The notes under the pieces: model-generated
The model's database searches: none
Told to the model about the DNA's origin: nothing
What the model saw: the letters and a program-made list of their open reading frames with translations, nothing else
Source: a virus
Taxonomy: Duplodnaviria > Caudoviricetes
Length of the DNA stretch: 64,000 nucleotides
Strand: one strand, 5' to 3'
IMG/VR virus record: IMGVR_UViG_3300013121_000046
Position numbers and translations under genes: made by a program
In this document: positions 3,337 through 60,066 of the stretch, piece by piece
Layout of the letters: each line of letters starts with the position of its first letter
Numbering within the stretch: the stretch's first letter is position 1

Positions 3337-4696
3337 GAATCGGCGTGACTAGTCCATTAAGAATAAAAGTTTCCCCCACTAGCCCAGACAAGACGGCATT
3401 GGGGGTACTATTTTTCTTTTTCTCTGTACCAATAACTCGATCAGTACTCACCCCTGGAACACCCATATGATACAGAGTTTCCCAAGCTGCAATTGCATTC
3501 TTTGTTTTAGCCCAAGGTCGGATTTGTGCTGCCGCAGCACTTAAGTTCTCTGGAGAAATGTCCTCAGAATCAAAATCAACTCGGATTCCCAAAGACACTA
3601 GTAAATCTCTACCCTCTCGTAAGGGATTTACTAGTGTGGGGTGTGTAGGAAGTTCTTCCTTAACTGACCTTCCCCCCCAAAAGGGTGGGAGTTTAATACT
3701 TGAAAAGAATATCTTTAGCAGACTCTGATAATCTGCTTGCGACCTTAGGAAGAGTTTCCATCGAGGTTCCCCGAAAGTATTCAGGGTCGCATATCGACCC
3801 CACCGAACTCCAAAGTTCGCACAAACCAATTGGACCGTCTCACTAACTTCACTATTTTCCAGTTCCAACTCAAAATCCCTAACCGTCCATTGACCATTGG
3901 CAAGCACTAATCCGGTAATCCAAGCTTTCTGAATTTCTTCTGTAGCCTCTCGAATGTACCGAGGAATTTTGTGGTTAGCCTCATGTACCAAAAACCTCAT
4001 TTCAGAACGAATAACAGCTAGACCAGTGAACTTCATGTAGGCAGAGTTTGCAGCAAAAATAGATTGCTTTGTGGCGTCCAAAGCCCATTGGCGGACTCGG
4101 TTTCTCTGGATCGCGCTACTCGTAGGAAGGACGAGCTTATCACCCCGCAATTCAGCCCCCACCAGAGCCCCGTAGAGGCTAGCCTCAGCCTCCGACACCT
4201 CGTCCCCCTCACCAAAGCACCGATGCCCCGCCTTGACTACCACGATCATACCAGGGCGTAGGCTCTGGGCCTGGCACCAAGATCCATGCCCGGTCTTATT
4301 AAGGGTGAGTATCCGACTATCCGGAGTGGCCAAAATATTATGCCCACACTCCGTTCGCACCTGAGTCAGAAAACTATCGTTATAATGCAAACCTAAAGCC
4401 AGGGTCCGGGAATCCATACTCTGAATTGGTATTGCTGTAGGTCGCTTATCCGCAGTCAAAAATCGACCCAATTGGCCCTTAAGAATTTCTCCTTCAGAAT
4501 TTCTAACCCAATAGGCCTCTGAAACTAGGTCTGACAATTTCAGTATTCCCCGATCAGGTGAAAACACATAGCTATCCAAGCTAAAGCCGGCTATTTTGAG
4601 TGTCGGACCCACCTGGACTCCCTTCCAAACTATGGGTGAAGGAAACTGATTACCACTCTGAAGCACGCTTAGGCTTCGGACAAACTTTTTTACCAT
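3317..4696 (-). CDS. stand-alone degenerate intein-like protein (Hint + LAGLIDADG-like domains, splicing residues lost)
   Basis: Block A-like GFSLDSYVFSPDRGILKLSDL; block B-like VRTECGHNILATPDSRIL, then WCQAQSLRPGMIV; LAGLIDADG-like LYGALVGAE and KIPRYIREATEEIQKAWITGLVLANG; block F/G-like DRVIGTE...ETFILNGLVTP. Confidence 0.75.
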   Translation of the reverse strand: MVKKFVRSLSVLQSGNQFPSPIVWKGVQVGPTLKIAGFSLDSYVFSPDRGILKLSDLVSEAYWVRNSEGEILKGQLGRFLTADKRPTAIPIQSMDSRTLALGLHYNDSFLTQVRTECGHNILATPDSRILTLNKTGHGSWCQAQSLRPGMIVVVKAGHRCFGEGDEVSEAEASLYGALVGAELRGDKLVLPTSSAIQRNRVRQWALDATKQSIFAANSAYMKFTGLAVIRSEMRFLVHEANHKIPRYIREATEEIQKAWITGLVLANGQWTVRDFELELENSEVSETVQLVCANFGVRWGRYATLNTFGEPRWKLFLRSQADYQSLLKIFFSSIKLPPFWGGRSVKEELPTHPTLVNPLREGRDLLVSLGIRVDFDSEDISPENLSAAAAQIRPWAKTKNAIAAWETLYHMGVPGVSTDRVIGTEKKKNSTPNAVLSGLVGETFILNGLVTPILGENND

Positions 4697-4928
4697 TGGA
4701 GTCTACTCGATGCTGCTTCACCGGGAAACCACAAGTAGTGCAAACGTCTAAGGTTTCCTCGGAACTTGCCTTAACCGGCTCTATTACTTTCTTACGAAGC
4801 ATTGTTCTGGACCCAGGAACCGGACATATTTTTCTACCTCGTACTGATTTATGAAGCTTTCCGGGAAACCCACAGGACATACAGATATGCTGGTCAGCTT
4901 CATTCCCTGGGGCTGGTTTAGGAGGCAT
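4650..4928 (-). CDS. small protein with two CxxCGFPxKxH-x6/7-K-x-CP zinc-finger repeats
   Basis: CMSCGFPGKLHKSVRGRKICP and CTTCGFPVKQHRVDSNGKKVCP. Confidence 0.65.
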   Translation of the reverse strand: MPPKPAPGNEADQHICMSCGFPGKLHKSVRGRKICPVPGSRTMLRKKVIEPVKASSEETLDVCTTCGFPVKQHRVDSNGKKVCPKPKRASEW

Positions 4929-5142
4929 TGAAATTCCTATCTTGCCACGATTTCCAAGCCAAGGAGGCTCGAATTATTAGGTAGCACGACAAAGGGATTA
5001 ACCCCCAAAGATTATTCTGGTAGGCCATCTGCAAATAAAAAATTTGGCCTAAAACACAAACCAACCAGCCGGAAGCTTTGTGCCTAGCTGTTAACTCCAT
5101 TGAAAGGACTGTGCAAATAGCTGCTAACCAACTTATTAACAT
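4918..5142 (-). CDS. short PnuC-like (nicotinamide riboside transporter half-unit) membrane protein
   Basis: Three TM helices, with SWLAAICTVLSMELTARHKASGWLV and a terminal AWKSW pattern typical of phage PnuC-like proteins. Confidence 0.6.
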   Translation of the reverse strand: MLISWLAAICTVLSMELTARHKASGWLVCVLGQIFYLQMAYQNNLWGLIPLSCYLIIRASLAWKSWQDRNFNAS

Positions 5143-10580: not shown

Positions 10581-11061
10581 GAGATTTTGTTGCCTTTGAA
10601 GATTTCACAGTTGAAGTCTTCTTTGCTTTTACCTTAGAGGCCGACTTAGTTTCCCTTGTAGTCTTAGTTACTTTTTTCGTGACCTTCTTGTCCTTAGCCT
10701 TCTCTGAAAACTTTCGCAAATTATCCTCAATAACTTTCTGCTCCTCTCTAAGAGCCAGCATTCCACTCAACACACCCTCTACTCGACCTAAGGAGATGAG
10801 GCTCTTGTGAAAAACCTCCATTGTTTGTTGAGTACAATTCGCTGTCCAATCCTTACCGGCCTCAACAACCCTGGATCTTAGCATTATATACAAAGGGATA
10901 ATGTATTGAAGAATCTCAGGGGAATTCTCTATGTCCTTCTGGGTCTCTGCAATTAAATCTGAGATATCATCTGTCACACGTTTCTTGTATACGGCTTCCG
11001 CCGCATTGAAAAATTGAGTCATCGAAGGGTAAACAAGTAACAACTTTTCAGACATTACCAA
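10564..11061 (-). CDS. hypothetical protein with Lys-rich (histone H1-like) C-terminal tail
   Basis: Tail KAKDKKVTKKVTKTTRETKSASKVKAKKTSTVKSSKATKSRAKRS. Confidence 0.55.
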   Translation of the reverse strand: MVMSEKLLLVYPSMTQFFNAAEAVYKKRVTDDISDLIAETQKDIENSPEILQYIIPLYIMLRSRVVEAGKDWTANCTQQTMEVFHKSLISLGRVEGVLSGMLALREEQKVIEDNLRKFSEKAKDKKVTKKVTKTTRETKSASKVKAKKTSTVKSSKATKSRAKRS

Positions 11062-11833
11062 ATTCCTTTTGTACTACCGTGTCTCCCCAGAATTTACCAC
11101 CTGTGACAGTCAATCTTATCGAGGAATCTCCCGCAACCAATAACTCCTCCCGAAGCACCTGAAACAACTCATCTGTAGTGTCGGAAACTTGAAGCAGCAC
11201 TCCCCGAGGCAATACGGCAAGGATTCTTCCCCGTAAACGCTTAAAATTTTCTGAGTGCCACAAGTTCAAAATTCCGGAGTAACAAACTCCGCCAATATCC
11301 TTGGAAGGTTGCGGGAGTATCTCTACAATACCAAGGTGGGAAGAAATTCCGGAGAATATTTTCCCACCCTCAAATCCCAAGAATTCACACATCAGGATAT
11401 TTTGATCGGGAATTCGGATCAGAGGCCAAAGATGCGATTTCCAGAAAAAAACAGCACTAGCCGGACATTCTCCGAGGGAATCTAAGGAGCGAATAACTGC
11501 CCTAACCTCCCGTAGCTGTATGGTTAGATTTCGCAGAGACCAAAGCTCAGCCATAGCTGAGGAGGCTACATTCGGTAACTGCTCAGGTAGCACCAGCCTC
11601 CCTGAGACCGTTCTAGGGAGTATAACCCCAGCCTCTTGCGTCAGTTTCTCCCAACTCTCGATACTCAGGGGATTTAGATATCGACCCTGACTCTGAGCCA
11701 ATCGGCTACTTCCCTCAGCAAGGTTCTTGGCTAATTTAGTATCTAGCTGAGCCCCAAAATGCAAAGAACACCTCAATTTTTGACGATTGAGGTGTTCCAG
11801 AATGTGCCGAATTTGACCCAGTACTGAGGTCAA
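11048..11833 (-). CDS. degenerate, catalytically inactive family A DNA polymerase-like protein (thumb + palm remnants)
   Basis: IRHILEHLNRQKLRCS..RLAQSQGRYLNPLSIESWEKLTQEAGVILPRTVSG..AMAELWSLRNL parallels the PolA thumb. RGRILAVLPRGVLLQV..IRLTVTGGKFWGD parallels LLQVHDELVFEV..VPLKVDVGIGxNWGE. Likely TTG start at 11833 (ORF track extends to 11911). Confidence 0.5.
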   Translation of the reverse strand: MTSVLGQIRHILEHLNRQKLRCSLHFGAQLDTKLAKNLAEGSSRLAQSQGRYLNPLSIESWEKLTQEAGVILPRTVSGRLVLPEQLPNVASSAMAELWSLRNLTIQLREVRAVIRSLDSLGECPASAVFFWKSHLWPLIRIPDQNILMCEFLGFEGGKIFSGISSHLGIVEILPQPSKDIGGVCYSGILNLWHSENFKRLRGRILAVLPRGVLLQVSDTTDELFQVLREELLVAGDSSIRLTVTGGKFWGDTVVQKEFGNV

Positions 11834-12447
11834 TACCTCTTCAGAGTCACGGTCTGATTGAAGCCCATCTCGGTCAGCGACAGGGCCGCTTCGGGATTTT
11901 TCCAAACCCATTTAGCGAGATCCTTCTTCGCCGTAATACTCCGAGTGTAGGAGAAAATCTCCTGAAATCGCTCTTGACCCAATGCGGTGGCTAACTCGGC
12001 CACCAGCTTCAAAAGGGCTGTCTCATCTTCCAACAGAGGGGGCTTAACCGTGAGAGAGGAAACCTCACAAAAAAATTCTGAATACGCTTCCTCACCCACC
12101 GCCTCAACCAAGGCTTCCCTCTGATTCTCCCCCATTACGGGGTACCGAGCCTGAAACTGAACCTGAGCCTTTTCCCCATTTGGGGTTAGCAGGTCTACGG
12201 TTCGACAATACTCCTCTTGCTTATCCCGAAATACTTCTGCGAGCATCTTCACCGGCGGCTTGGTTTTCTCACAAGCAGTATTAGCAGTCTTCAGCTTTTT
12301 ATCCGCTGCCAAAAATTGATTCACAACCGCTAACTGCTTGTCGGACAAATCAGAAACTACCAGGGTCTCAGAGACTTCCTTTTCTACTGCGGCATCCTCT
12401 TTTACAGAGTTGAGCAACTTCGCAGCTTTTGCAAGAGAGACCGCCAT
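11830..12447 (-). CDS. hypothetical protein with internal duplication (weakly Gam-like)
   Basis: Strong RBS and its own promoter-like region; repeats EALVEAVGEEAYSEFFCEVSSLTVK / AELATALGQERFQEIFSYTRSITAK. Confidence 0.6.
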   Translation of the reverse strand: MAVSLAKAAKLLNSVKEDAAVEKEVSETLVVSDLSDKQLAVVNQFLAADKKLKTANTACEKTKPPVKMLAEVFRDKQEEYCRTVDLLTPNGEKAQVQFQARYPVMGENQREALVEAVGEEAYSEFFCEVSSLTVKPPLLEDETALLKLVAELATALGQERFQEIFSYTRSITAKKDLAKWVWKNPEAALSLTEMGFNQTVTLKRY

Positions 12448-12696: not shown

Positions 12697-12915
12697 CTAT
12701 CTAAAACCAACTGACTCCAAATACTTCTTAGCCTGAATACAGGCGCTAGTTCTACTCTGTTCCGGTGCTTCCAATAGTACCTTCTCACCACACATAGGAC
12801 AGTATGCAACGACCTCTGAAACCATCGGTGCTGATTCTTCGAGTTGTCCTCCATGACAACTTGGGCAAGAAAAGATGTACACCTGTTTGACTTGAACTAA
12901 TCGCCCAGCGACCAT
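12697..12915 (-). CDS. zinc-ribbon protein
   Basis: FSCPSCHG...YCPMCGE; GGAG RBS. Confidence 0.6.
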   Translation of the reverse strand: MVAGRLVQVKQVYIFSCPSCHGGQLEESAPMVSEVVAYCPMCGEKVLLEAPEQSRTSACIQAKKYLESVGFR

Positions 12916-13005: not shown

Positions 13006-14151
13006 TTAACAGCAATAGTAGAGCTTACTCTCTGCCCTAGTTACAGCAGTATACCGCCACCTAATGGGATCCCAGGAATTTCTCTTTCTACCTAATTCGT
13101 CAAAAACTAATACAGACTTGAATGAATCTGCTTGCGCCTTATGACAGGTTATTGCATAACCATAATCGCATTGAACCATCTCTTTTCCAACTTCATCCAA
13201 AGTCTTGGGGCTATTGAATTGCGCCTTCCAAAGGGGCAAATCACCAACTGCTACACCTAACTCATCCACAGCCTTAATTACCACAACTTCGTCATTCTCA
13301 AAAATTTTATCCTCGACAAACAATATCTGCCCATTATAAACCTGATAAGTAGAGTTATTTCTCAAGCAAACCAAACGTTCCCCAATGGAGACGGAGCCAC
13401 TGAATCCTTTTGCCTTTCGTATTTCGTAATTGAACCTCTGCCTCGTTGTATTATAGGCACAAATAATCTGGTCTACCTCTAAAGCTATTGATCGAATTCC
13501 ACCAGAATATGGCAGAACCTTACTTGCCTCCAGTATCTTAATGTCTTGGGCTTTTCGCCATCGGTCTGGCTTAAACAAACCCCACCGAATTTCACAGGAG
13601 AGTTTTATGATCTCAGAGTCTTTTGCCTGACGAAAAATGGTCTCTAAGCGAAAGTCCGGATTTTCCATTAAGGAAACATGTTCACCGATAGGCTGAAGCT
13701 GTCCATGATCCCCTACATACAGTACGGGCCGATTGAAGGAAATTAAATCCTGATAATTCCTGCGGGAAATCATAGAGGCTTCGTCAACAATTATTCTTAC
13801 ATCCTCAGGAAGGTACGGAACCTTCACAAACACTGGTTCCCTTAACCGCTTAGTTTCCTCAGCATCTAAGTAATAAATTAGTTGATGGACTGTACTGGCC
13901 CGAAAGACACCTTTTCTTTTAAGCACTGACACAGCTTTCCCTGTATAGGCAATAACCCGAACATCCCCTTCTATTTTTTTAAGCAAAGCCTTAATTACAT
14001 GTGTCTTTCCGGTACCTGCATAACCCCCCAAAACAAACTGACTGTATTCATTTTGTTTAGTCCTATCAAACCAATCCATTATCTCTGTCTGTGCGGCCAT
14101 TTGAGCCTCAGACAATTCAATCTGTTCCGTTGGCCGAGACACCTCTTCCAT
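13006..14151 (-). CDS. Dda/RecD-like SF1B DNA helicase
   Basis: GYAGTGKT, IIVDEASMI, VGDHGQLQPI, IFRQAKDS, YGYAITCHKAQ, YTAVTRA. Confidence 0.92.
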   Translation of the reverse strand: MEEVSRPTEQIELSEAQMAAQTEIMDWFDRTKQNEYSQFVLGGYAGTGKTHVIKALLKKIEGDVRVIAYTGKAVSVLKRKGVFRASTVHQLIYYLDAEETKRLREPVFVKVPYLPEDVRIIVDEASMISRRNYQDLISFNRPVLYVGDHGQLQPIGEHVSLMENPDFRLETIFRQAKDSEIIKLSCEIRWGLFKPDRWRKAQDIKILEASKVLPYSGGIRSIALEVDQIICAYNTTRQRFNYEIRKAKGFSGSVSIGERLVCLRNNSTYQVYNGQILFVEDKIFENDEVVVIKAVDELGVAVGDLPLWKAQFNSPKTLDEVGKEMVQCDYGYAITCHKAQADSFKSVLVFDELGRKRNSWDPIRWRYTAVTRAESKLYYCC

Positions 14152-37906: not shown

Positions 37907-39163
37907 CTATCCAATTGCTACTCCGGGGATATCGAGAAGCTTAACCTGTTTTCTCAATCTCCCCGGTGAAACTTTTCGAGGCAACCTTTCCCTTTGTGGT
38001 TGATTCAGATACTCCAGGTAGAGGGGGATATTCAGTTGACCTGGAACTTCTGAGGATATGAGTACCGCTTTTTGCAACTTACCCCATTGTTCAGCAGTAA
38101 GTGGAGACCGAACAATCAAAAGAATTTCAGATACATCACTAGGTTGTTTCACAACCTTAATTTTGTCCTCCGAAGTCACTGGTTCCGAACATACATCCGG
38201 AAAATATTCTTTTTTGAAGTCTTCTAGGCTAACTAACTCACCCCAGTTATCTCCAACTTCTATATCTGTCTCTATCGGTACATCCCAGTTTTTTTGGTTG
38301 TTGGGAAAGGTCATTAACTCAGAAAGCTTCTGACAATTATCTACGAACTTATCATCCAAGTGAATCTCAAAAACCAATTCATCATGGACATTCAACAAAA
38401 GCTTAACTTGTACGTCGGGATTAGTTAAGAGCCATTCTTGTATCCGACACATCGCAATTTTTAGGATATCAGCGCTGGTCCCCTGGATAGGAGAGTTGCT
38501 GGCTGAATTAGATAGATAACTCTCCCAACGATTCCGTTCTTTTTGTGTTTGTGCCTTCTGTATCTCTCGTATAATATGTCCGACATTCCGTACCCGACCA
38601 TAGAAAGTTGTAACTCGGCCCTCGTTTTTAGCTCGCATGGTTTGAAGATCAAACCATCTGCGATAGGCCGGGAGATTTTCCCACCAGGTAGAATGGAGAG
38701 CGACTGCTTCTGGTAAAGTTAGGTCGCTTTGTCGGTATAGGGTACGAGCGGTACCCCCGTAAAGATTGCCGAAATTGGCTGCTTTGGCCGCATCTCGTTG
38801 TTCTTTGGTGGGCTTATCTGTCTTGTAGGCCACCTTTGCCATTTCGGAATGTAGGTCTCGCCCTTCTCTAAAAGCTGCTATCCAAACTTGTTCCTGTGAT
38901 AACTGGGCGGCTACTCGAAGCTCGATGGCCTTATAGTCAATCGAAACTATCTTCCAGCCAGGTCGAGACCGAAAGGCTCGTCGAATATTAGTTCCAGGAC
39001 CAATTTTTAGACTTGCTTCTTCCCAAGAACAAGCCTTTACCCACTTACATTTTTCACAGGAACTTCTAAAACAGTATGTAATGCCACCCTCTCGCCAAAA
39101 TTGCCCTAATTCCATTACGGCCGGGACATAGCCGGGGGTACCTATTGGTGGTAATTCAGGCAC
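37907..39163 (-). CDS. polA: family A DNA polymerase, C-terminal half (palm/fingers)
   Basis: NIRRAF..IVSIDYKAIELRVAA (motif A), RDAAKAANFGNLYG (motif B), NSPIQGTSADILK, LNVHDELVFE (motif C), GDNWGE; GTG start with GGAG RBS. Confidence 0.93.
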   Translation of the reverse strand: MPELPPIGTPGYVPAVMELGQFWREGGITYCFRSSCEKCKWVKACSWEEASLKIGPGTNIRRAFRSRPGWKIVSIDYKAIELRVAAQLSQEQVWIAAFREGRDLHSEMAKVAYKTDKPTKEQRDAAKAANFGNLYGGTARTLYRQSDLTLPEAVALHSTWWENLPAYRRWFDLQTMRAKNEGRVTTFYGRVRNVGHIIREIQKAQTQKERNRWESYLSNSASNSPIQGTSADILKIAMCRIQEWLLTNPDVQVKLLLNVHDELVFEIHLDDKFVDNCQKLSELMTFPNNQKNWDVPIETDIEVGDNWGELVSLEDFKKEYFPDVCSEPVTSEDKIKVVKQPSDVSEILLIVRSPLTAEQWGKLQKAVLISSEVPGQLNIPLYLEYLNQPQRERLPRKVSPGRLRKQVKLLDIPGVAIG

Positions 39164-39731
39164 GACGATAACTTCTCCAAATCTCTAAATCCATTTCTGC
39201 GGGAGATAAGTTACTGTTAGCGATATGGGATAAAAAAACACGCTCCAATTCTAGGTATCGTTTCCCCGTCGGGGTGTTCTTCGGAGCAGATATGCCCAGA
39301 CTATTGATATACTTCAAAATGTGCGTATCCAACACCGCGAAATGCTGATTTTTTCTTGAGTGCAAAATAAATGCCCGAGAAGTCTTTGGCCCTATACCAT
39401 AAATTGCCTCTAACTCAACAACTGAACAAGTCTGTAAGTCAATTCCTGAGTTAGATATATCTAAAAAGGTTTTTGCCTTTGCCCGAGAGCAACCCATACC
39501 TGCCCACTTTAATCGAACAGCAATCTCTTCATGAGAGAAGTCTTTTATCTGTAAAAAAGGGCTGTCCGCCTTAGGCAGATGCTCTAAAAATTCCTCCACT
39601 ACTCTGGCGGCTAATTTTGCTGTTTTTCCAGCGGCACAAATCCAAAACAGTATCGTCTTCTCTAATTCTGGAACACTTTGATTAAACTGAGTAATATTAT
39701 CCGGATCAATCCTAGGCATACTTAACCTCAT
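39156..39731 (-). CDS. HhH DNA glycosylase/AP lyase (OGG2-like 8-oxoguanine glycosylase family)
   Basis: LEAIYGIGPKTSRAFI (HhH with catalytic Lys), AVLDTHILKY (catalytic Asp), RYLELE..SPAEMDLEIW. Confidence 0.8.
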   Translation of the reverse strand: MRLSMPRIDPDNITQFNQSVPELEKTILFWICAAGKTAKLAARVVEEFLEHLPKADSPFLQIKDFSHEEIAVRLKWAGMGCSRAKAKTFLDISNSGIDLQTCSVVELEAIYGIGPKTSRAFILHSRKNQHFAVLDTHILKYINSLGISAPKNTPTGKRYLELERVFLSHIANSNLSPAEMDLEIWRSYRRA

Positions 39732-40975
39732 TCGTGATTCAATTCTGCTGGGGGTACCTTAATCTTTCTGCACTTTGCTAAACGGTATTTAGAGGCCGAT
39801 GGAATAGATTGAACGTTCATCGCGGTATAGAATTCTCCTTTAGAACCACCACCGGAGGAGAGTCGGCCTGTCGGGGCTCCCACAGAGGAGAACTTAAAGT
39901 GAGCATATGGATCGTCATCTGTAGTAGACTCTAATAATCTTCCGACGTAGGTAGATCTCTCTTTACACAGTTTTCTATATAACACAATCTTAGCCGCTAT
40001 CGGACTAACCTCTGCCAATATCTCTAACTCAGCCTCACCTAAGTTAGGATTACCTTTTTCTGTTTTAGAGAAGGCTATACCATTTTCAGTAAAATACTTA
40101 GCCAATTGCTTACTACTCAGCAAATTGAAAGGTCCCCCGGCTGCCTCATACACTTCCTTCTCCACCTGACAGATCAGACGCTCTAAGGTCTTATCCGCCT
40201 CACGAAGAATAGTCCTGTCCATCAATACACCAGATTCCTCCATGCTCAAAAGACTCTCGATAAGATTGTGCTCTACCTGACAAATCAAAGCCTGTTCTGC
40301 CTCAACTTTTTCTTCCGTAGCTCGATATACCTTGATAGTCATCACTGGGTCAGCCGCCGCATACAAAGTAGCCTGTTCAGGATCTGTATAAGAAAAGTCT
40401 ATCTCACCCCGCATCTTTTTATCTCTAGCTGCTCCAGGTACCTCTCGAATATCCAACATCTGTAACTCTGGATGAAACCACTGAATTGCTGATTTCAGGC
40501 CCACCTTTTCTACCTTCTCGTTGCTATTCCATAACCAAGCATAGACTAAAGCATCCCTCAGTATTGAGTATGAAGCCCGTCTATTCACTCCACACTGCCT
40601 TAAAAACCTACCCTCAAACTTATAGTTATACACCAACAAAATTCTAGGCGGAGCTATCACCTCCTGTATGATTTTCCAAACAATATCTGGATCAAGATTC
40701 TGCTCTGGCTTGACTTTGTGTCTTACTGGACAATAGACCCCTTCATCCGAAGAAAAAGCCAAGCAGTGCCCTACAACATCTTGCTCTTTTGGATCTAGAT
40801 TTGTAGTCTCAATGTCCCATGAGACCAGATTTTGAGTTCTATTAGCCTCAACATAGTCTCGTAACTCTTGTATGGAGCCTATCTGTCGAAGTCGAATTTG
40901 ACTCATCCAAGGCTTCCAAAGAGGGCTATCCTGATATGCTATTCGAGTTTCCAAGGAGGCTGTATCTGTGGGCAT
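39728..40975 (-). CDS. polA: family A DNA polymerase, N-terminal half (3'-5' exonuclease + thumb)
   Basis: VSWDIETT (ExoI), YNYKFE (ExoII), LYAAADP (ExoIII), MEESGVLMD, FNLLSSKQL, YRKLCKERSTY, TGRLSS..NVQSIP, then stop. Confidence 0.92.
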   Translation of the reverse strand: MPTDTASLETRIAYQDSPLWKPWMSQIRLRQIGSIQELRDYVEANRTQNLVSWDIETTNLDPKEQDVVGHCLAFSSDEGVYCPVRHKVKPEQNLDPDIVWKIIQEVIAPPRILLVYNYKFEGRFLRQCGVNRRASYSILRDALVYAWLWNSNEKVEKVGLKSAIQWFHPELQMLDIREVPGAARDKKMRGEIDFSYTDPEQATLYAAADPVMTIKVYRATEEKVEAEQALICQVEHNLIESLLSMEESGVLMDRTILREADKTLERLICQVEKEVYEAAGGPFNLLSSKQLAKYFTENGIAFSKTEKGNPNLGEAELEILAEVSPIAAKIVLYRKLCKERSTYVGRLLESTTDDDPYAHFKFSSVGAPTGRLSSGGGSKGEFYTAMNVQSIPSASKYRLAKCRKIKVPPAELNHE

Positions 40976-51859: not shown

Positions 51860-52411
51860 TTAGCCTCGAAATTTCCCTGCGTTATTTCTCCACAAGTATG
51901 CCCAACGTTCCCCGGGAGTCTCTTTTCCTCCGTGCCTATAGAAATTGAATTGCTGAGCGTAGGGTTCAGCTATCATCTCGATATACAAAGACTCAATTGT
52001 TACTACAACCCCAGTTTGAATTTCAACTAAGTTGATAATCACTTCCGCCGGAGAAACATCCTTGTTCAAAATCGGACCATCTACTGTAAAAGAATACCAG
52101 GCTGACTCTTCCGTTAATTCAACATCCTCCGGGCCGTACACTTTTGAAAGTACCAATTCCAAAGTTAGAATGGCAATCCCACTGGCTTTCGCTCTTAGAT
52201 AAACTGTAACAGAATCTACCGTATTCGTTTCAGGGACTGGCCCACAACCCCAAATTTGACCCAAATCCAAATCATCTTCGGAGACTAGAACAGAGTCAGT
52301 CGCTACTGTATCTATATCAGGATAGACGATTTGTGTGAGAGTGGGGCTATAATTTTCCCAGACTTGATTTACAGCCGAACTTGGAAACATTCTATTAGTT
52401 TGCAGCGTCAT
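51860..52411 (-). CDS. single beta-sandwich (jelly-roll-like) domain protein
   Basis: Same architecture as the repeats in the giant neighbour (SVTVYLRAK..ELTEESAWYSF..VTIESLYIEM). Confidence 0.6.
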   Translation of the reverse strand: MTLQTNRMFPSSAVNQVWENYSPTLTQIVYPDIDTVATDSVLVSEDDLDLGQIWGCGPVPETNTVDSVTVYLRAKASGIAILTLELVLSKVYGPEDVELTEESAWYSFTVDGPILNKDVSPAEVIINLVEIQTGVVVTIESLYIEMIAEPYAQQFNFYRHGGKETPGERWAYLWRNNAGKFRG

Positions 52412-55400
52412 TATTGTGAATTCCTAAATGTTGGTGGATCAGGCTGTCTGGCTTGCTTCACATACAAAACTCTCTTATTAGGTACCTGCTTTGTATCATC
52501 TCCCGAGGGACCAAAGAAAGCATTTGGCCCATAGGAAGTAAATGTATCCGGGCGGGAAGAGATATCCATATTTGTCTCAGTCGTCAACCCAAATATGTCA
52601 ACGACCCGTAATCGAAGCAACCAGCGTATTGGGTGTTCTCCCGATATCGCTCGCAAATCCAAAGGTCCGTTTTGCAGTAATTCCCCGGGTGTTCCGTTAT
52701 CGGTCTCAGGCGCGGTATTCCAACCTACAGCACCTTCTTGTACTCCTAGAGGAGTAAATCCTTGGGAATTAACATCGTATTCAGGATTAGTTAAATCAGC
52801 ATCCCCCGAAATATCTTCACCGCCACCAATCTGAACCGAGTAAACTTTTTCCCAAAAGGGAACTACAAATATCGGAGTTCCAGCTAAATGCACGGCTGGT
52901 TGTGTCTCATTTGCTCCCCGTACGATCTTTGTTTCCTCGATTGGAGCCCCGCCCTCATCCAATGGAGAATAGACTCTTTGCCCCGGATAATCCATGTTAA
53001 CCGTTGAGTCAATTTGAATTAATTCATTGTCAATGAGTAGACCGATCTTCGGCTTACTCTTATCATCCTGAAGAGCGTAGATATTTCTAACTAAGAATTC
53101 GGTATCCAAGGCTCCAATTGATGACGCCAAGTAGGCAACATTAACTGTTTGATAGTCCCGATCATCCGCCTGCTCATCCCCATTCCGATCTAACCAACCG
53201 TATATTTCATACCGATCCAAGACTGAATTGGCTGCCTGCTGATTCACACCACCCTTATGGGCTGTCCCAGCAATGCTCTCGATTTTGCCTAGAGTTTCAC
53301 CCTCAGTACCGTACAACAAGGTGTCACCATCCTGCCAACAACCATAATTATATGTACCATAGTTTACGGCATCATCCGGGATAGAAAGGTCAGAACCAAG
53401 GGTCCGTTCAGATAACCACTTAATCCGACCCTCAGGTTTTGTACTAGCAGGCCAAACTGAAATAACAGACTTCAAAGCCCGAGACACAATCACATCCATA
53501 GCAGCGATAAACAGCGTATTTGATGAATCAACGCCTATTGGCTCTCTTAAGTATGCTTCCACTGCTACTTGAGCCGAACGAATCTGAGCATCTGACCAAG
53601 TACCAAACCAGGATAATTCGTAGATATCAAAGCTTAATTCATCCCCTTCCTTCCTAGGAATAGTGAATCCCTCAATGGTTTTGGCACCCAAACCAAACAT
53701 TTGCCCAGAGCCATCTTGATTCTCCGCTATCAAGGGCTGAATACGCACACTTATTTCCGGACTGGGCTGAGAATACTCAGGACTTGGTGGAGGGCTAGGA
53801 GAGGGTGGTGGAGGAGGACTTGGCGGGGGTGGTGAGGGGGGCGAAGGTGGTGGAGAGGGCGGTGATGGACTGGGGGGCGGAGGGGACACTACCGAGGAGA
53901 TGGCAATAGTAAAGGTTTTAGACGAAACAGTTCCCCTAGAATCCACCACGCCCACTTGAAAATTATATAATCCAGCGGAAACTGGCGTACCGCTTAACAC
54001 TCCAGTTGAACTGAAAGATGTTCCAGGGGGGATCGTCCCGCTTAAAATTCCCCATGAATATGGGGGCTGACCATTGATTGCTTGGAATTGTAGGGAGACC
54101 GCCACCCCAACTGGTGCCGTTGGTAGTGGATCTTCTGTAATAATCTGAATTCCGGTCAAAACTGACCAATAGACCGGTTCGGAATCTGAGGCCTCAGAAG
54201 GAAGAAGCGAACCAACCAAGGCTGTAATTGTGCCACTATCCGGGGTCTCTGCTCCTAAATAAGTGATTTTCATCACCAAACTGATATTCTCATTCGCTCC
54301 AATATCAGTTGGCGGTGGATCCTCCTCCGAATTAGCGTAGAAAGCGACCTCAAATGGGTCTAAGCCACTGTCCGATACCTGGACAGAATCCCATTGAAGG
54401 TCGGTCCTACTGACCCCGGCTTGCTCATATAAAGTAACAGAGAGGTACTGACTCTGCCCGGTGGTACTAAAGGTATAGGGTTCTCTTGGGTCCTGTCCTG
54501 GGCACACCCACTGTGGGGGAACCAACTCCGAATTATACTCAAGACCCCCAAAACATAACACTAAGGATTGAGGGGACCCCGGTGGAGAGGGCGGAGGGCT
54601 TGGTGGAGGGGGGGGACTAGGCGGAGGGGGCGGTGAAGGACTAGGCGGAGGGGACGGAGGTGAAGGGGTTGGTTCCGCCTGAATCCTATGAAATACCGTG
54701 AAAGTCAAACCTGTATAGGCTGAATCCTGAACACTTAACCCGAACTGGAATAAGCCCACTGCGGTCGGTATGTCATACTCGTTATAATTTTCATCTGACA
54801 GATCGGTCTCTAGGGGAGAATACAGGAACCTACTAGAATCTTCCGGATCAACCTTAACTGTAATCCCTGGAGGTAATCCCCCTAAAGCCTCCCCCTGTGT
54901 TTCTACTAAGAAAGTATTCCAAGTGTAGGGTGGCACACCACCTTCTACCTGGAAGACAAAACCCGCCGCAGTATCCCGGTCATCAACACTAACTCCATGT
55001 TGGCCTGTAACAGCATCATATTCAGTGTCAACTGTTCCATTGGGCAAAACACTGTCAACGAAATCTGGTATTTCCAGGGGGAGTGTTATCGGAGACACTG
55101 TGACGGGAGATTCTGGGATTGCCGCATCTTGACCCAAAGCAATCCTAATTCTGATCCCGGTGTAATAATCCAAGGCTGTGAGCAAGTATGCCTCAGGGCT
55201 CGGGGGAGCCCCTGGAGGACCTGGCGGGGGAGATAGAAAGGGTGCCGTTACGGCCCCTTCGGGTACATCACTTAACCCGAAGGTAACGAGAGTAGTCTGT
55301 TCCTCATCTGTTAACGGAATATACATGTAGTCTGTATAGTCCGGGGGGTTGAAGTCCGCCCCTGGGGGGAGTAGGACTACATCTGGTAGTGGGTCTGGAT

Positions 55401-58400
55401 AGGTTATCGTAGAACTACCCGGGATAGCCACCCCGTCTGAATCCTCCTCCGGCCAAGGTAGGCCCTCATCAATATTTGCCACATCCCCGGCAATCTCACC
55501 CCACACCCCATCAACACTAGTGGGGATGAGCTTAGCGTCTTCCAAGAATAGGGGGACACCTTGGCATAATAAATCCACTGCTGACATTTTTACTGTCGCA
55601 GTAGTGCCACCATAGTTGGTAAAGATAACCTTTACCGTCATTGCATCTAAATTCTGATCCGTCCAAGGTACAGTCTCAGATAGCCAAACCACTTTAGTCA
55701 GAGTGTAGTCTTCCACTGACAAGTACTGACTTCCTGTGTCCTCTAGTGTGTTATTAGGATATTCCAGAGTTGTTCTAACCGCCACCGATGTACCAGCACT
55801 AGCATAGGCTCTTACTCTAGAAGTTATGTACTTCCATTGGGCACTAATCGGAACATTAGAAAGATCATATACAACTTCCCGACTTTCCCCAGCGGGGATA
55901 GTTATGGTGGCAAAGGTCGTATCATCTTCATCATCTGGATCAGTGTCTACATCTAGATATCCGTAAGCTGCGGGAGAATCTGAATACACAAAACCAGAAT
56001 CTGTTGACTCAATGCCCACAGGAAAAAGCCTGAAAGGGGAAACTTCTGGAAGAGGACGAATTAAATTCCCCGCCACCAAAGCATCCACCTCAAAAATCTC
56101 TACAGCATTCAATTCACTCTGACCTCCAGAAGTGAATGCGGAAACCTGAATTACCAAAGACCGAAGCTGCCCCAGAGTCCAACTACCCTCCCAAGAGTAA
56201 GCAAAATTATTTGTGAGAGTTGAGAGGCCATTCTCGGTAGAAACTAACCAAGGATCCCCAATTGCCTCCCCTTCCACATAAGGTTGGAAGCTAACAGTTG
56301 GGTCTTGAACATCCCTAGTTAAAGCCATCCTAATACGGATAGTGATGGCCGTAAATAAAGCAGTAGCTATTGGATCAGTCATACTGAACTCAATAGCACC
56401 CAGCGCAGTCAAAGGGGCAGGCCCAAAGGTGATCGACATGCTAGTCGAATCGTCCGGACTTGAGACCTCAGAGTTTACATCACTCCAAGTACCTGAAACT
56501 GTTCCTGAAGATCTTAAGATGGCATCTGGAACCAAAGTTTCAACAATGGTCGAGACTTGAGGCTCCGTAACCGGTGGGGAGGGTGGAGAGTAGGCTGGAG
56601 GAGACTCCGGAGGGCCTTGAACTAAGAGTGTTGCCCGAACTCGATCTAAAAATCCATCATACCCTAGACCAGACACATCAATAGCATAGGTTCCTTCTTC
56701 TACCTCTTGGGTAGTCACCTGCAAGGTAGTGGTTTTCTCCAACCCTCCCGGAGTTATTTGATAAGAAGGAGTCAAGACGGTGGTAATATCTGCTTCTGGA
56801 GATACTTCCGCAGAATAAGCTACCGTAGTTGTGCCTAAAGGAGCTAAAGTCTTGATGATAAAAGTAGTAGTCCCTGACGTTGGGACAGTCTGTACATCTG
56901 GGACGGCATTCAAAAAGAATTCAGTTGAGCCCAAGGGTGACGGTGGCAAAGGTGGCAAAAGGGGCGGAGGAGCATTATTCACATAGAAATTAAGTATGCC
57001 TGAAGCTCCCGATCCAGAGCTATTTGAGGCATTTATAACCACCACAAATCGGGCTACCGAGCCAAAAGGAGCCTCCGGGGTGGCGGTGACTGTGAGAGTT
57101 AGGGCTACAGACTGTTCAGGGGTAATCTCAAAGCTACTTATATCAAAAGTAGCTACCACTCCCGGATGCGTACCCACGAAATTAACTTGCGGAATGGCTA
57201 TTCCCTCATAGCCATTCGAGGTAACTGTAATAGCGTATTCGGCCGAAGAAGGATCCACTACATCGGTTGGTTCAACTTCTACATCAAACAGGCCAACAAT
57301 CGGTGGGGTTGTACTTCCGGGTGGGCTGCCTGGAATAGGCGGTTGCTCCATAGCCAACAGTTCAACCGCATCAATAATGACCCAAGGTGTCGCCGAATTT
57401 CTATTTTGCTTGCCAACTACTTTAGCCTCAAGAACCGAAGTAACTTCTTCCAGTTGTTCTTTCTCGAAAGTACCGGTCCAAAGTAAATCGTAATCTTCGT
57501 AGTCCGTACCCAGAGTCGGTGTAGTTTGTGAGGACCCTAGTGGGGTACCATTTACTAACAGTCGAGCATCCAAACGAACATCTGGAAGTGGTACAGATGT
57601 TAATTGCGCCTGCACATCCCCCAACGTGACCGTAGTGTTTTCCGCATCCTCATCACTAGTAGAGGTTTCAAACTTGGGGGTAATTTTTATAGCTAAGTCC
57701 GCCAACTCCTCATAAAACCATAAACCTCTCCAAACTAGTTCATATTTAACCAAAGTATCAGTTAATGGTAAAACTGATTTATCTACCGTACCCGTTAACG
57801 GGGAGAAACCAGAGGTTGGTCGGCAAACCAGGACGACCTTAGGATCATCCTCTGAACTTTTCTTCGCAGTAAGCTTTATCCGAACTTCCGTCCAAGGTCC
57901 GGGCCCATCCGGTTCGGGAAAACCTAAAACCAGGGTGCTCGAATTTCCGGAATACTTTCCCGGAGAGGTGATTACTGTAGCATCAGATAACGATAAAGAA
58001 CCGGTTAGCTTACTGAACAGTGGGGGAGAACCCCAATAGGCTCGAAGTTTATCCTCATCAGGAAGCAGGGTCTGAGTCGTAACATCTTCTAAAGGTTCTG
58101 TCAGAGGTTCTGGTAGATCCGTAACTTCTACCACCCCACCGGTATCTTCCAACCTAAAAATATCCGTATCAACTCTAACCGGAACGGCAAAAACAACCAG
58201 TGGCACCTTACCTGAAGTTCGCTGTCCCAAACCATCCGTGAAATGAATCTGTAATAGATACTCACCGGCTGAGGTGGGAGTACCAGACAAGATACCCGTG
58301 AGTACATCGAAACTCAGCCCAGCCGGTATTCCTGAGTCCCCCGATATAGCCCCAGTAATCTGCCATCTTGAGGGCGTACTAGAAACAGTTACTCCCGAAG

Positions 58401-60066
58401 ATTCCAAGGCTAGTGTCGCTGAATACTCTACACCAACAAAAGCCGAGGCTAAGGGTTCCTCCGAAATCTTAGGATATTGAAGAGCCTCCCCGACATAAGC
58501 CGGTTTGACATTCAAAATCAGAGATTCCAAACAGGTTGAGTAATCACATCGACGAGCTAGATAGTCAACAGTATAAGTTCCCTCTGGGACATTATAACAA
58601 TTCAGAGTCGAAGATGTTGTTTTAGGGTATCCGCCTGCTTGTACCGGAATAGATTCCCGGTCAATCGTAACTACGATCTTAGGCGTATCATCTGTAGGAC
58701 AGGGCGGGGAAGTGGCTTCCACTAAGGCAACTAATTGACCTGAATCTCCGATACTAGCTTGCGGGTTCTGATAGTAGGTGATAGTAAAGGTAGCTTCCTC
58801 GGAACCTCCGGGATAGGTTAACCTTACCCGGAAGTAATCAGAATCTACCGTACCAGCCCAGAAGGGATCGAAGTCCGTTAATTCATATGAGAAATGTCCG
58901 CCCTCAGCTATTTCACTAACCAAGCTCCCGTAGTATGGCCCCTCTAGAACTTCCCAAGTCTGCGGAGTAAGTAAGAAACCGTTTATCGGTATATCAAAAG
59001 CGGAAACAGAATACCCCTGAAACGGCAACTCTCTATAAAATGTTGTGTCCGATATAAAGTTTCTAGATCCCCCAGTACCACACTCTGCCGGTATAGGCAA
59101 CAGAGTGATAGGGGGAGAAACTGGAGGTGGGGGTGGAGGACTTGGTGGCGGTGGCGAGAATGGGGGTGGAGGTGGGGGTGAGACTGGCGGTGGGGACGGT
59201 GACGGTGGTGGGCTTGGTACCACTGATGACTTGTAAAGTGTAGCATTCAGGTCATTCAGACTGGTCGCAACAGCCAAAGTATCATAAGAACCGTTAACAC
59301 TCGTAGGATCCAAAACCGCTCGGATGGTTACTTGTAGGTTATCTATCTGGGTGTCTGTCCAAAGTTGTCCCGAAGGAGCAAAAAAGGAAACTACCGTCGA
59401 AGCGTTAGTAATGAATTGACCCGAAGTTTGATTAGTCCATACAGTCCCTAAAGTCTGCCCAAAATACCCAAACCTCATAGTAGGGGTATTGATTAGGTTT
59501 AAGTCTACGCCCTTATAACCAACTAGAGAACCGAGGCCAGAGGGTGCCGGATTCCAGATAATCGTTCCTGGAATATTAATTGAGATATCAATGTACGCTG
59601 CGGTAATACATCTCGGTGGTGAGGGACTTGAGGGTGATCCCCAAACTGCCAGTATATAGTAAAGGGCAGACAAATTTATATCTAATTGGTCGTATAAAGC
59701 AGCCCCACCAATACTTTGAAGAGTGTGATTACTGTCCGAAAGACTACTAGATGCTGCATCAGATCTAAGTCTAAAACTTAAGCTAGTTTCATAGTGTGCT
59801 GTAGGTGCTGGATAAGGAAAATGTCTGTAATTATTTGCAGAATTTGCCGGCCATGTGCCTATAGCAAATTGAAGGGGGAAGTTCTGAGTAAATGTCCTAT
59901 TTGATCCACCCCGTAAAGCATGACAAATCTGTGATGGATACTGAGTGCCAGACCCTATAACAACCCACGCATAATCTCCGGCTGGCTGAACACCAGCGGC
60001 TGGAATGGGGGTAGATGTAGGAGTCCCTATATCTACAAAAGGATAAAGAATTTCTGTGGTAGGCAT
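52411..60066 (-). CDS. giant (2551 aa) acidic virion surface/fibre protein with putative Ig domains, beta-sandwich repeats and extensin-like SPPPP linkers
   Basis: IPAGLSFDVLTGILSGTPTSAGEY and GQPPYSWGILSGTIPPGTSFSSTGVLSGTP (He_PIG-like); repeated W(T/S)xxQ(I/L)xxLxV modules; three long SP3-5 tracts. Confidence 0.8.
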   Translation of the reverse strand: MPTTEILYPFVDIGTPTSTPIPAAGVQPAGDYAWVVIGSGTQYPSQICHALRGGSNRTFTQNFPLQFAIGTWPANSANNYRHFPYPAPTAHYETSLSFRLRSDAASSSLSDSNHTLQSIGGAALYDQLDINLSALYYILAVWGSPSSPSPPRCITAAYIDISINIPGTIIWNPAPSGLGSLVGYKGVDLNLINTPTMRFGYFGQTLGTVWTNQTSGQFITNASTVVSFFAPSGQLWTDTQIDNLQVTIRAVLDPTSVNGSYDTLAVATSLNDLNATLYKSSVVPSPPPSPSPPPVSPPPPPPFSPPPPSPPPPPPVSPPITLLPIPAECGTGGSRNFISDTTFYRELPFQGYSVSAFDIPINGFLLTPQTWEVLEGPYYGSLVSEIAEGGHFSYELTDFDPFWAGTVDSDYFRVRLTYPGGSEEATFTITYYQNPQASIGDSGQLVALVEATSPPCPTDDTPKIVVTIDRESIPVQAGGYPKTTSSTLNCYNVPEGTYTVDYLARRCDYSTCLESLILNVKPAYVGEALQYPKISEEPLASAFVGVEYSATLALESSGVTVSSTPSRWQITGAISGDSGIPAGLSFDVLTGILSGTPTSAGEYLLQIHFTDGLGQRTSGKVPLVVFAVPVRVDTDIFRLEDTGGVVEVTDLPEPLTEPLEDVTTQTLLPDEDKLRAYWGSPPLFSKLTGSLSLSDATVITSPGKYSGNSSTLVLGFPEPDGPGPWTEVRIKLTAKKSSEDDPKVVLVCRPTSGFSPLTGTVDKSVLPLTDTLVKYELVWRGLWFYEELADLAIKITPKFETSTSDEDAENTTVTLGDVQAQLTSVPLPDVRLDARLLVNGTPLGSSQTTPTLGTDYEDYDLLWTGTFEKEQLEEVTSVLEAKVVGKQNRNSATPWVIIDAVELLAMEQPPIPGSPPGSTTPPIVGLFDVEVEPTDVVDPSSAEYAITVTSNGYEGIAIPQVNFVGTHPGVVATFDISSFEITPEQSVALTLTVTATPEAPFGSVARFVVVINASNSSGSGASGILNFYVNNAPPPLLPPLPPSPLGSTEFFLNAVPDVQTVPTSGTTTFIIKTLAPLGTTTVAYSAEVSPEADITTVLTPSYQITPGGLEKTTTLQVTTQEVEEGTYAIDVSGLGYDGFLDRVRATLLVQGPPESPPAYSPPSPPVTEPQVSTIVETLVPDAILRSSGTVSGTWSDVNSEVSSPDDSTSMSITFGPAPLTALGAIEFSMTDPIATALFTAITIRIRMALTRDVQDPTVSFQPYVEGEAIGDPWLVSTENGLSTLTNNFAYSWEGSWTLGQLRSLVIQVSAFTSGGQSELNAVEIFEVDALVAGNLIRPLPEVSPFRLFPVGIESTDSGFVYSDSPAAYGYLDVDTDPDDEDDTTFATITIPAGESREVVYDLSNVPISAQWKYITSRVRAYASAGTSVAVRTTLEYPNNTLEDTGSQYLSVEDYTLTKVVWLSETVPWTDQNLDAMTVKVIFTNYGGTTATVKMSAVDLLCQGVPLFLEDAKLIPTSVDGVWGEIAGDVANIDEGLPWPEEDSDGVAIPGSSTITYPDPLPDVVLLPPGADFNPPDYTDYMYIPLTDEEQTTLVTFGLSDVPEGAVTAPFLSPPPGPPGAPPSPEAYLLTALDYYTGIRIRIALGQDAAIPESPVTVSPITLPLEIPDFVDSVLPNGTVDTEYDAVTGQHGVSVDDRDTAAGFVFQVEGGVPPYTWNTFLVETQGEALGGLPPGITVKVDPEDSSRFLYSPLETDLSDENYNEYDIPTAVGLFQFGLSVQDSAYTGLTFTVFHRIQAEPTPSPPSPPPSPSPPPPPSPPPPPSPPPSPPGSPQSLVLCFGGLEYNSELVPPQWVCPGQDPREPYTFSTTGQSQYLSVTLYEQAGVSRTDLQWDSVQVSDSGLDPFEVAFYANSEEDPPPTDIGANENISLVMKITYLGAETPDSGTITALVGSLLPSEASDSEPVYWSVLTGIQIITEDPLPTAPVGVAVSLQFQAINGQPPYSWGILSGTIPPGTSFSSTGVLSGTPVSAGLYNFQVGVVDSRGTVSSKTFTIAISSVVSPPPPSPSPPSPPPSPPSPPPPSPPPPPSPSPPPSPEYSQPSPEISVRIQPLIAENQDGSGQMFGLGAKTIEGFTIPRKEGDELSFDIYELSWFGTWSDAQIRSAQVAVEAYLREPIGVDSSNTLFIAAMDVIVSRALKSVISVWPASTKPEGRIKWLSERTLGSDLSIPDDAVNYGTYNYGCWQDGDTLLYGTEGETLGKIESIAGTAHKGGVNQQAANSVLDRYEIYGWLDRNGDEQADDRDYQTVNVAYLASSIGALDTEFLVRNIYALQDDKSKPKIGLLIDNELIQIDSTVNMDYPGQRVYSPLDEGGAPIEETKIVRGANETQPAVHLAGTPIFVVPFWEKVYSVQIGGGEDISGDADLTNPEYDVNSQGFTPLGVQEGAVGWNTAPETDNGTPGELLQNGPLDLRAISGEHPIRWLLRLRVVDIFGLTTETNMDISSRPDTFTSYGPNAFFGPSGDDTKQVPNKRVLYVKQARQPDPPTFRNSQ
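53780..53887. repeat. extensin-like Ser-Pro tract (coding)
   Basis: [36 protein letters not shown]. Confidence 0.85.
54580..54670. repeat. extensin-like Ser-Pro tract (coding)
   Basis: [34 protein letters not shown]. Confidence 0.85.
59110..59220. repeat. extensin-like Ser-Pro tract (coding)
   Basis: [36 protein letters not shown]. Confidence 0.85.

Follow-up and report, generated by a model that had tools for sequence, protein, structure and literature searches.

We analyzed a 64,000-nucleotide stretch of the IMG/VR virus record IMGVR_UViG_3300013121_000046 (Duplodnaviria; Caudoviricetes), hereafter the window, which forms one long minus-strand gene run of an uncultured large phage whose PolA N-half lies on a 236,349-bp contig. 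Within this run, a short gene encoding the protein P0001 is best read, with a probability of roughly 0.7 judged from sequence and gene position, as a protein of ~260 aa that descends from a family A DNA polymerase domain and has lost catalytic function; it would be the counterpart of a family of reduced polymerases in related phages (A2) and is a candidate accessory of DNA metabolism. Two parts of the domain would be retained in P0001, its beginning, with the palm-thumb junction and helices of the thumb, and the C-terminal portion of the palm. The whole fingers subdomain would have been lost, with Pro-Arg-Gly replacing the metal-binding His-Asp-Glu. Reuse of dead polymerases is known for families B and Y, and we found no description of it for family A.

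The gene and its positional anchor are located as follows.

11048–11833, minus strand: mini PolA-like open reading frame (ORF) encoding P0001, 261 aa from the preferred start codon TTG at 11833
13006–14151, minus strand: Dda-like superfamily 1 (SF1) helicase, the positional anchor, with the mini PolA-like ORF 1.1 kb downstream

Residue numbers of P0001 refer to a longer, 287-aa form (11048–11911, minus strand, from ATG at 11911) unless the 261-aa form is named.

A family of fingers-less PolA remnants in related phages

The resemblance of P0001 to PolA exceeds chance, at the level of sequence comparison, only by way of a bridging family of related phages. Searching with a PolA profile built from the clade brought up one related contig in IMG/VR, G001 (200,689 bp, 91% complete), which is collinear with the window and has 28 genes in common with it. 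Here, a 295-aa ORF (L010:15141–16028, equivalent to G001 91141–92028) lies 1.8 kb downstream of the orthologous Dda-like helicase (93789–95039) and matches the Pfam family DNA_pol_A at E=1e-5. A second member, on the metagenome contig L020 (6874–7773), is likewise found 1.8 kb downstream of this helicase (3801–5051); the proteins at this position in G001 and L020 measure 293–299 aa. The A2 alignment comprises 13 members (P0044–P0056), namely the G001 ORF and 12 metagenome relatives of 248–295 aa.

Searched against Taq Pol I, the A2 profile scored 41.7 bits (E=9e-10) over two collinear stretches. A2 positions 5–67 align with Klentaq chain positions 138–200, at the start of the polymerase domain, and positions 144–246 align with Klentaq 305–530, leaving a gap of ~125 residues that falls exactly at the fingers. 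The motif A aspartate (Taq D610) is an invariant threonine in A2 (ATY), and the HDE of motif C is replaced by PYS and variants. The ratio of nonsynonymous to synonymous substitution rates (dN/dS) between the G001 and L020 genes was 0.20, at a dS of ~1.1 that is near saturation. These data establish A2 as a PolA-derived family that evolves under purifying selection and has neither fingers nor catalytic residues.

Searches among cultured and INPHARED phages found no A2 members, and on a contig carrying a high-GC relative of the helicase (L017) the 5.8 kb downstream of it contain no mini-PolA. Directly upstream of the mini-PolA, both G001 (L010:16034–16264, minus strand) and L020 (6644–6877, plus strand) carry a 76–77-aa partner gene whose product includes the string …ILLWQITS.HIR.LTARGVYLA…; in L020 the two genes overlap by 4 nt.

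P0001 as a probable divergent counterpart of the A2 family

P0001 and A2 were reciprocal best matches. When P0001 was compared with 613 G001 ORFs using phmmer, the best match was the 295-aa A2 member, though weakly (E=0.38), and when the A2 hidden Markov model (HMM) was run against 134 six-frame ORFs of the window, P0001 outranked all the others (E=0.075), the real PolA halves included. Profile alignment with hhalign placed P0001 residues 211–273 onto A2 positions 223–287 (P=0.004–0.005, 31–32% identity), a segment of A2 that itself aligns with Taq 749–824, and returned a second collinear alignment of residues 61–95 onto A2 37–71 (P=0.05). P0001 ranked first of 163 natural proteins in this comparison, whether the ranking used the top score or the collinear chain score, with a top score of 26.9 versus 26.4 and 24.9 for the window's PolA halves. 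In global mode it scored 16.8, versus 2.6±2.1 for shuffled sequences.

The segments of P0001 defined by these and the following alignments are listed below.

11399–11737, minus strand: residues 59–171, stretch resembling the start of the polymerase domain (hhalign against the A1 profile, described below)
11093–11281, minus strand: residues 211–273, putative C-terminal palm equivalent (helix Q, motif C hairpin, final helix and strand)
11201–11209, minus strand: P235-R236-G237, at the position of the motif C His-Asp-Glu by alignment through A2 to Taq

In a MAFFT alignment, the 261-aa form runs end to end with A2 with few gaps, at only ~18–21% identity. This alignment pairs SSHLGIVEILPQ of P0001 with SSLFGRTAIVPE of the A2 long form, the counterpart of PolA LFGRRRYVP. 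The genomic position provides a line of evidence independent of the alignments: the P0001 gene lies downstream of the same Dda-like helicase (1.1 kb, versus 1.8 kb for the G001 and L020 members), on the same strand and with a similar size. Moreover, the alignment registers proposed by eye, found by hhalign and obtained through the A2-to-Taq route agree at the thumb start, the F/Y-N-x-x-S motif and motif C. On the combined weight of rank and genomic position, we consider it quite likely that P0001 is homologous to the A2 family, and P0001 is probably a very divergent positional counterpart of it.

Direct similarity of P0001 to PolA

The original prediction, made by eye from the letters of the window, had derived P0001 from the thumb and motif C regions of the phage's own PolA. 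The peptides it quoted are all present, with the PolA strings at 40217–40252, 40052–40144, 39968–39988, 38363–38404 and 38237–38260. BLASTP of P0001 against the two PolA halves returned only unrelated short pieces (E=0.6 and 0.019) and did not recover the by-eye alignments, and a Pfam scan that included PF00476 and leucine-rich repeat (LRR) families gave no match even at E<=10. Using a profile of 20 PolA N-halves from the phage's clade (A1), hhalign aligned residues 59–171 with PolA 263–376 over 105 columns (P=0.014–0.02), covering the palm-thumb junction, the F/Y-N-x-x-S-x-x-(Q/W) motif and a YRxL-like LRNL. One of 213 shuffled sequences reached the A1 score of P0001, and a proven A2 family member scored much the same against A1 as P0001 did (24.6 versus 24.7).

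The proposed thumb similarity thus holds in one respect and falls short in another, in that hhalign finds exactly the same register and the match taken alone is no better than chance. As far as sequence comparison reaches, the by-eye similarity is real only insofar as algorithms find the same alignment. The caveat about chance is all the stronger because a single ORF had been picked from about sixty. A candidate relative in a Desulfobacteraceae metagenome-assembled genome, a 647-aa protein of tetratricopeptide repeat (TPR)/periplasmic-binding type (L033:4483–6426, plus strand), was rejected, as the octamer NLWHSENF that it has in common with P0001 is a chance match.

Probable loss of the catalytic residues and of the fingers

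In family A polymerases, motif C carries the metal-binding His-Asp-Glu, and the O-helix of the fingers binds the deoxynucleoside triphosphate (dNTP). The A2-to-Taq alignment gave, with moderate confidence, the same register by which HDE had originally been read as replaced by PRG in P0001. The suggested deletion of the fingers was likewise borne out: P0001 has only ~45 residues between its motif A region and the segment equivalent to helix Q, where Taq has ~140, and it contains no motif B string (O-helix, R..K...F/Y.G..YG). Given this short spacing and the missing motif B string, the fingers and the dNTP-binding O-helix appear to be absent. The position of the motif A aspartate varies with the method: MAFFT places P168 there, with D169 adjacent, and hhalign against A1 places both residues at TGRLSS. 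If the homology holds, polymerase activity of P0001 is excluded by what is known of family A enzymes.

Start codon and coding quality

Two start codons are plausible for the gene, and the longer form would add the following segment.

11834–11911, minus strand: candidate N-terminal extension of 26 residues, if translation starts at ATG 11911

ATG 11911 is preceded by AAGGA 9 nt upstream and would create an 82-nt overlap with the upstream gene; the extension it adds is of low complexity, and nothing in the A2 family corresponds to it. TTG 11833 overlaps the TGA of the upstream gene by 4 nt (TTGA), and in MAFFT the N-terminus it produces matches that of the A2 family. The protein-language-model recognition score rose from 2136 for the ATG form to 2441 for the TTG form. 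Because of the coincident N-terminus and the higher language-model score, TTG 11833 is preferred, in agreement with the originally proposed start, which brings P0001 level with A2.

The ORF is intact as had been described, remaining open over 261–287 codons on the minus strand. Its frame 0 has the best codon usage of the six frames, at +0.08 per codon, a value at the low end of the genes in the window (0.08 to 0.28), and its product has no internal repeat. A hairpin of 13 base pairs followed by a T-rich stretch (11765–11798, minus strand) lies inside the ORF, ~35 nt past the TTG. Scanning of the region for promoters and terminators gave results at chance level, with terminator-like sites no commoner than in shuffled sequences.

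Origin and proposed role

P0001 had been described as a paralogue of the phage's own PolA, a claim that the scores do not favor: A2 matches Taq at 41.7 bits, versus 2.5 and −0.1 bits for the phage's own PolA halves. A2 is far closer to Taq than to these halves, which leaves duplication of the phage's own gene as no more than a candidate origin. P0001 keeps PolA features that A2 has lost, including the C-terminal G-x-x-W-G-D/E and the spacing of the thumb motifs, where the N-x-x-S to YRxL-like distance is 46 residues in P0001, 48–53 in PolA and 34 in A2.

A thumb and palm without fingers could grip duplex or primer-template DNA, or dock partner proteins, without binding dNTPs or synthesizing DNA. 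We infer that P0001 may act as a non-enzymatic, DNA- or protein-binding accessory of the phage replication and recombination machinery, with the neighboring helicase or the two-piece polymerase of the phage as its likeliest partners. This role appears the likeliest because the linkage to a Dda-like helicase has been kept, within a replication/recombination block and in a clade with a split polymerase. A more ambitious proposal, which we regard as doubtful, is that a jumbo-phage clade with a two-piece PolA carries a helicase-linked dead PolA as a dedicated non-catalytic replisome subunit. Such a subunit could, for example, serve as a link between helicase and split polymerase, or secure 3' ends during recombination-dependent replication, and the helicase linkage would then predate the divergence of the lineages to ~40% PolA identity.

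Weighing the alternatives

Several results weigh against the interpretation of P0001 as an A2-type polymerase remnant. No single test of P0001 is significant at database scale. Searches of PHROGs and of PDB sequences were blank, as were tblastn against INPHARED, a word-indexed search of 5.8 billion sequences, searches of the ESM Atlas with both forms, and pattern scans of IMG/VR and JGI metagenomes; an exhaustive search of 1.8 billion proteins returned only a 114-aa fragment of P0001 itself and repeat proteins. Against the A1 profile, 3 of 163 unrelated natural proteins, drawn from this phage and its relative, outscored P0001, which came fourth, and a broad profile of 8 PolA sequences recovered only the C-terminal G..WG piece (P=0.35). 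The margins against A2 are small, with the best unrelated protein at 23.9 versus 26.9 for P0001 by top score, and at 14.5 versus 15.1–16.8 in global mode. When P0001 was added to the A2 alignment with MAFFT --add, it matched 17 of 60 invariant columns, versus 15.2±2.9 for shuffles, which gives no separation. The A2 signature NLFEDYR[IL]G, located before the motif C hairpin, is mostly lost; P0001 has NLWHSENFKRLRG instead, keeping the N, the L and an aromatic residue but not EDYR. The central third of the protein (~100–175) aligns differently with A1 and with A2, leaving the motif A position unassignable. The 76-aa partner gene was undetectable in the window by HMM and hhalign, and an unrelated 205-aa gene takes its place; the C-terminus of the 205-aa protein, which by eye resembles the middle of the partner, was considered as a relative and set aside, as HMM and hhalign searches gave it no rank. 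Finally, the accessory function is pure inference from sequence and placement.

Structure prediction also counts among these points. A single-sequence AlphaFold2 model of P0001 reached a predicted local distance difference test score (pLDDT) of 36, and a model that used A2 as its alignment had a mean pLDDT of 42 and is low-confidence. Only residues ~180–240 of the 261-aa form reached pLDDT 60–79 in the A2-based model, as a helix, hairpin, helix and strand. Foldseek returned matches to this low-confidence model only at E>=0.1, with adenylyl cyclases, which have a palm-like fold, listed first.

P0001 might accordingly be seen as an unrelated, fast-evolving orphan whose PolA-like strings arose by chance and whose A2 ranks were luck, a reading that fits the missing database-scale match, the non-significant BLASTP comparison with the phage's own PolA, the fourth place against A1, the P of 0.35 with the broad profile, the uninformative invariant-column test and the absence of the partner gene from the slot. 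Such luck would have to extend to the reciprocal best matches, to the first rank among 163 proteins in two statistics, to the agreement of the three registers and to an ORF of the same length on the same strand after the same helicase, and we regard an orphan as unlikely. Repeat-protein matches suggested a further possibility, that P0001 is an LRR-like protein of the ribonuclease-inhibitor type, since a 4261-aa NACHT-LRR protein matched it at E=3e-16 over 18 stretches. All 18 fall on residues ~150–227 and represent one weak match (BLASTP 29 bits, pair E=0.001) that recurs over 18 copies of a 57-residue repeat, which inflates the E-value; as P0001 has neither an internal repeat nor a Pfam LRR match, and the other matches are unrelated repeat proteins, this explanation is extremely improbable.

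The remaining alternatives accept a polymerase origin and differ over function. Avs19, a defense protein that senses PolA, recognizes the core polymerase domain of family A polymerases regardless of catalysis, with no need for the catalytic aspartate (PMC13581612). P0001, which keeps pieces of the fold without catalysis, could then be, as the original prediction had suggested beside a role as partner of the split polymerase, a PolA-derived decoy or inhibitor of host defenses that sense the phage polymerase fold, such as Avs19-type STAND sensors, and the ~20% identity between lineages in which PolA keeps 42% would fit an arms-race protein. A mimic that binds such a sensor is, however, expected to trigger rather than block it, the A2 family has a dN/dS of 0.2, and the kept placement beside the helicase in a replication/recombination block points to DNA metabolism, which together make a decoy quite improbable in our view. 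The extreme divergence of P0001, its loss of the family signature motif and the weakest codon-usage signal among its neighbors could also be taken as signs of a decaying, pseudogene-like relic without function. Decay is hard to reconcile with an ORF that is intact over 261–287 codons in a gap-free, overlap-coupled run and scores best in its correct frame, and with purifying selection on A2; we hold it to be very unlikely. The preferred interpretation is still a non-catalytic polymerase remnant related to A2.

Comparison with known polymerases and significance

The A2 family resembles P0001 in length (248–299 aa versus 261 aa, collinear end to end), in the missing fingers and lost motif C acids, in the stop/start overlap with the upstream gene, and in its placement 1–2 kb downstream of a Dda-like helicase on the same strand. 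It differs in sequence (~18–21% identity), in the signature NLFEDYR[IL]G and in the 76-aa partner gene. The Klentaq, Klenow and Bst polymerases (PF00476) can be aligned with P0001 by way of A2 at Klentaq 138–200, 305–330 and 455–530 (motif A and C palm); unlike them, P0001 has no 3'-5' exonuclease, fingers or O-helix (motif B), and has PRG for HDE. The phage's own split PolA has G-x-x-W-G-[DE] in common with P0001 and a weak collinear match (59–171 to 263–376 of the N-half), but no significant pairwise similarity to it.

Poxvirus F12 (a dead PolB, PMC4304020), the inactive module of Pol epsilon (PMC2669801) and ImuB (a dead PolY, PMC12926913) show that the fold can be kept after catalysis is lost. 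All three belong to other polymerase families, and none is a fingers-less family A remnant. Surveys of family A (PMC10201439, PMC12926913) describe split, exonuclease-dead and truncated forms; a text search of these broad surveys found no mention of a polymerase-dead, fingers-less remnant.

The remnant appears in uncultured giant phages of two lineages that have diverged deeply, each time beside the same helicase, and this placement suggests a function kept over a long time rather than decay. The window contributes the second and far more divergent of these lineages, in the same genomic slot. If the homology is true, a remnant of this kind can drift to ~20% identity yet keep its size, position and intact frame, and P0001 supplies a second independent sequence for finding the surfaces that matter. 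If the replisome-subunit proposal is also true, family A would gain its first example of a dead-polymerase subunit like those of families B and Y.

The split PolA and the gene neighborhood

The phage's own PolA is encoded in two pieces.

39728–40975, minus strand: PolA N-half, with the 3'-5' exonuclease, the thumb and the polymerase-domain start up to the TGRLSS region
37907–39163, minus strand: PolA C-half, with palm and fingers, motifs A, B and C, and HDE present

The split falls just past the TGRLSS/NxQAIP region, and a gene for a 191-aa Ogg/HhH-GPD-like glycosylase (39156–39731) lies between the halves. PolA of G001 is split at the same point, with a gap of only 216 nt and no inserted gene. 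The split is a feature of the clade, as ~36 database relatives have N-half-only lengths. The closest relatives of the N-half include P0008, with 52% identity and encoded on a 139,572-bp contig, as well as P0009, P0012 and P0016.

The P0001 gene is part of a replication/recombination block that is gap-free and overlap-coupled, and it is flanked directly by two genes.

11830–12447, minus strand: upstream 205-aa gene, whose stop overlaps the TTG of the P0001 gene
10564–11055, minus strand: downstream gene, with a start codon (ATG 11055) that overlaps the stop of the P0001 gene (ATGTCTGA)

Other neighbors include a UvsX/RecA-like recombinase, a GroES-like protein and several unknowns. Family searches with the product of the downstream gene gave no match; it ends in a long basic C-terminal tail rich in Lys, Ser and Thr (KKVTKKVTKTTRETKSASKVKAKKTSTVKSSKATKSRAKRS) that resembles histone H1 or a DNA-binding tail. 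A 72-aa ORF (12697–12915, minus strand), located in the interval from the helicase gene to the 205-aa gene, has two CxxC pairs (CPSCHGG … CPMCGEK) and the look of a zinc ribbon. The structural half of the window contains a 2551-aa ORF (52411–60066, minus strand); the only match seen for it was with a 996-aa G001 protein, over 64 residues in BLAST. Between the shared anchors, G001 in turn has ~20 kb of DNA missing from the window, and this extra DNA encodes an 807-aa protein (L010:11468–13891, minus strand, ~87.5–89.9 kb of G001) that has numerous lectin-like QxW repeats of the ricin type and a peptidase-like C-terminal part.

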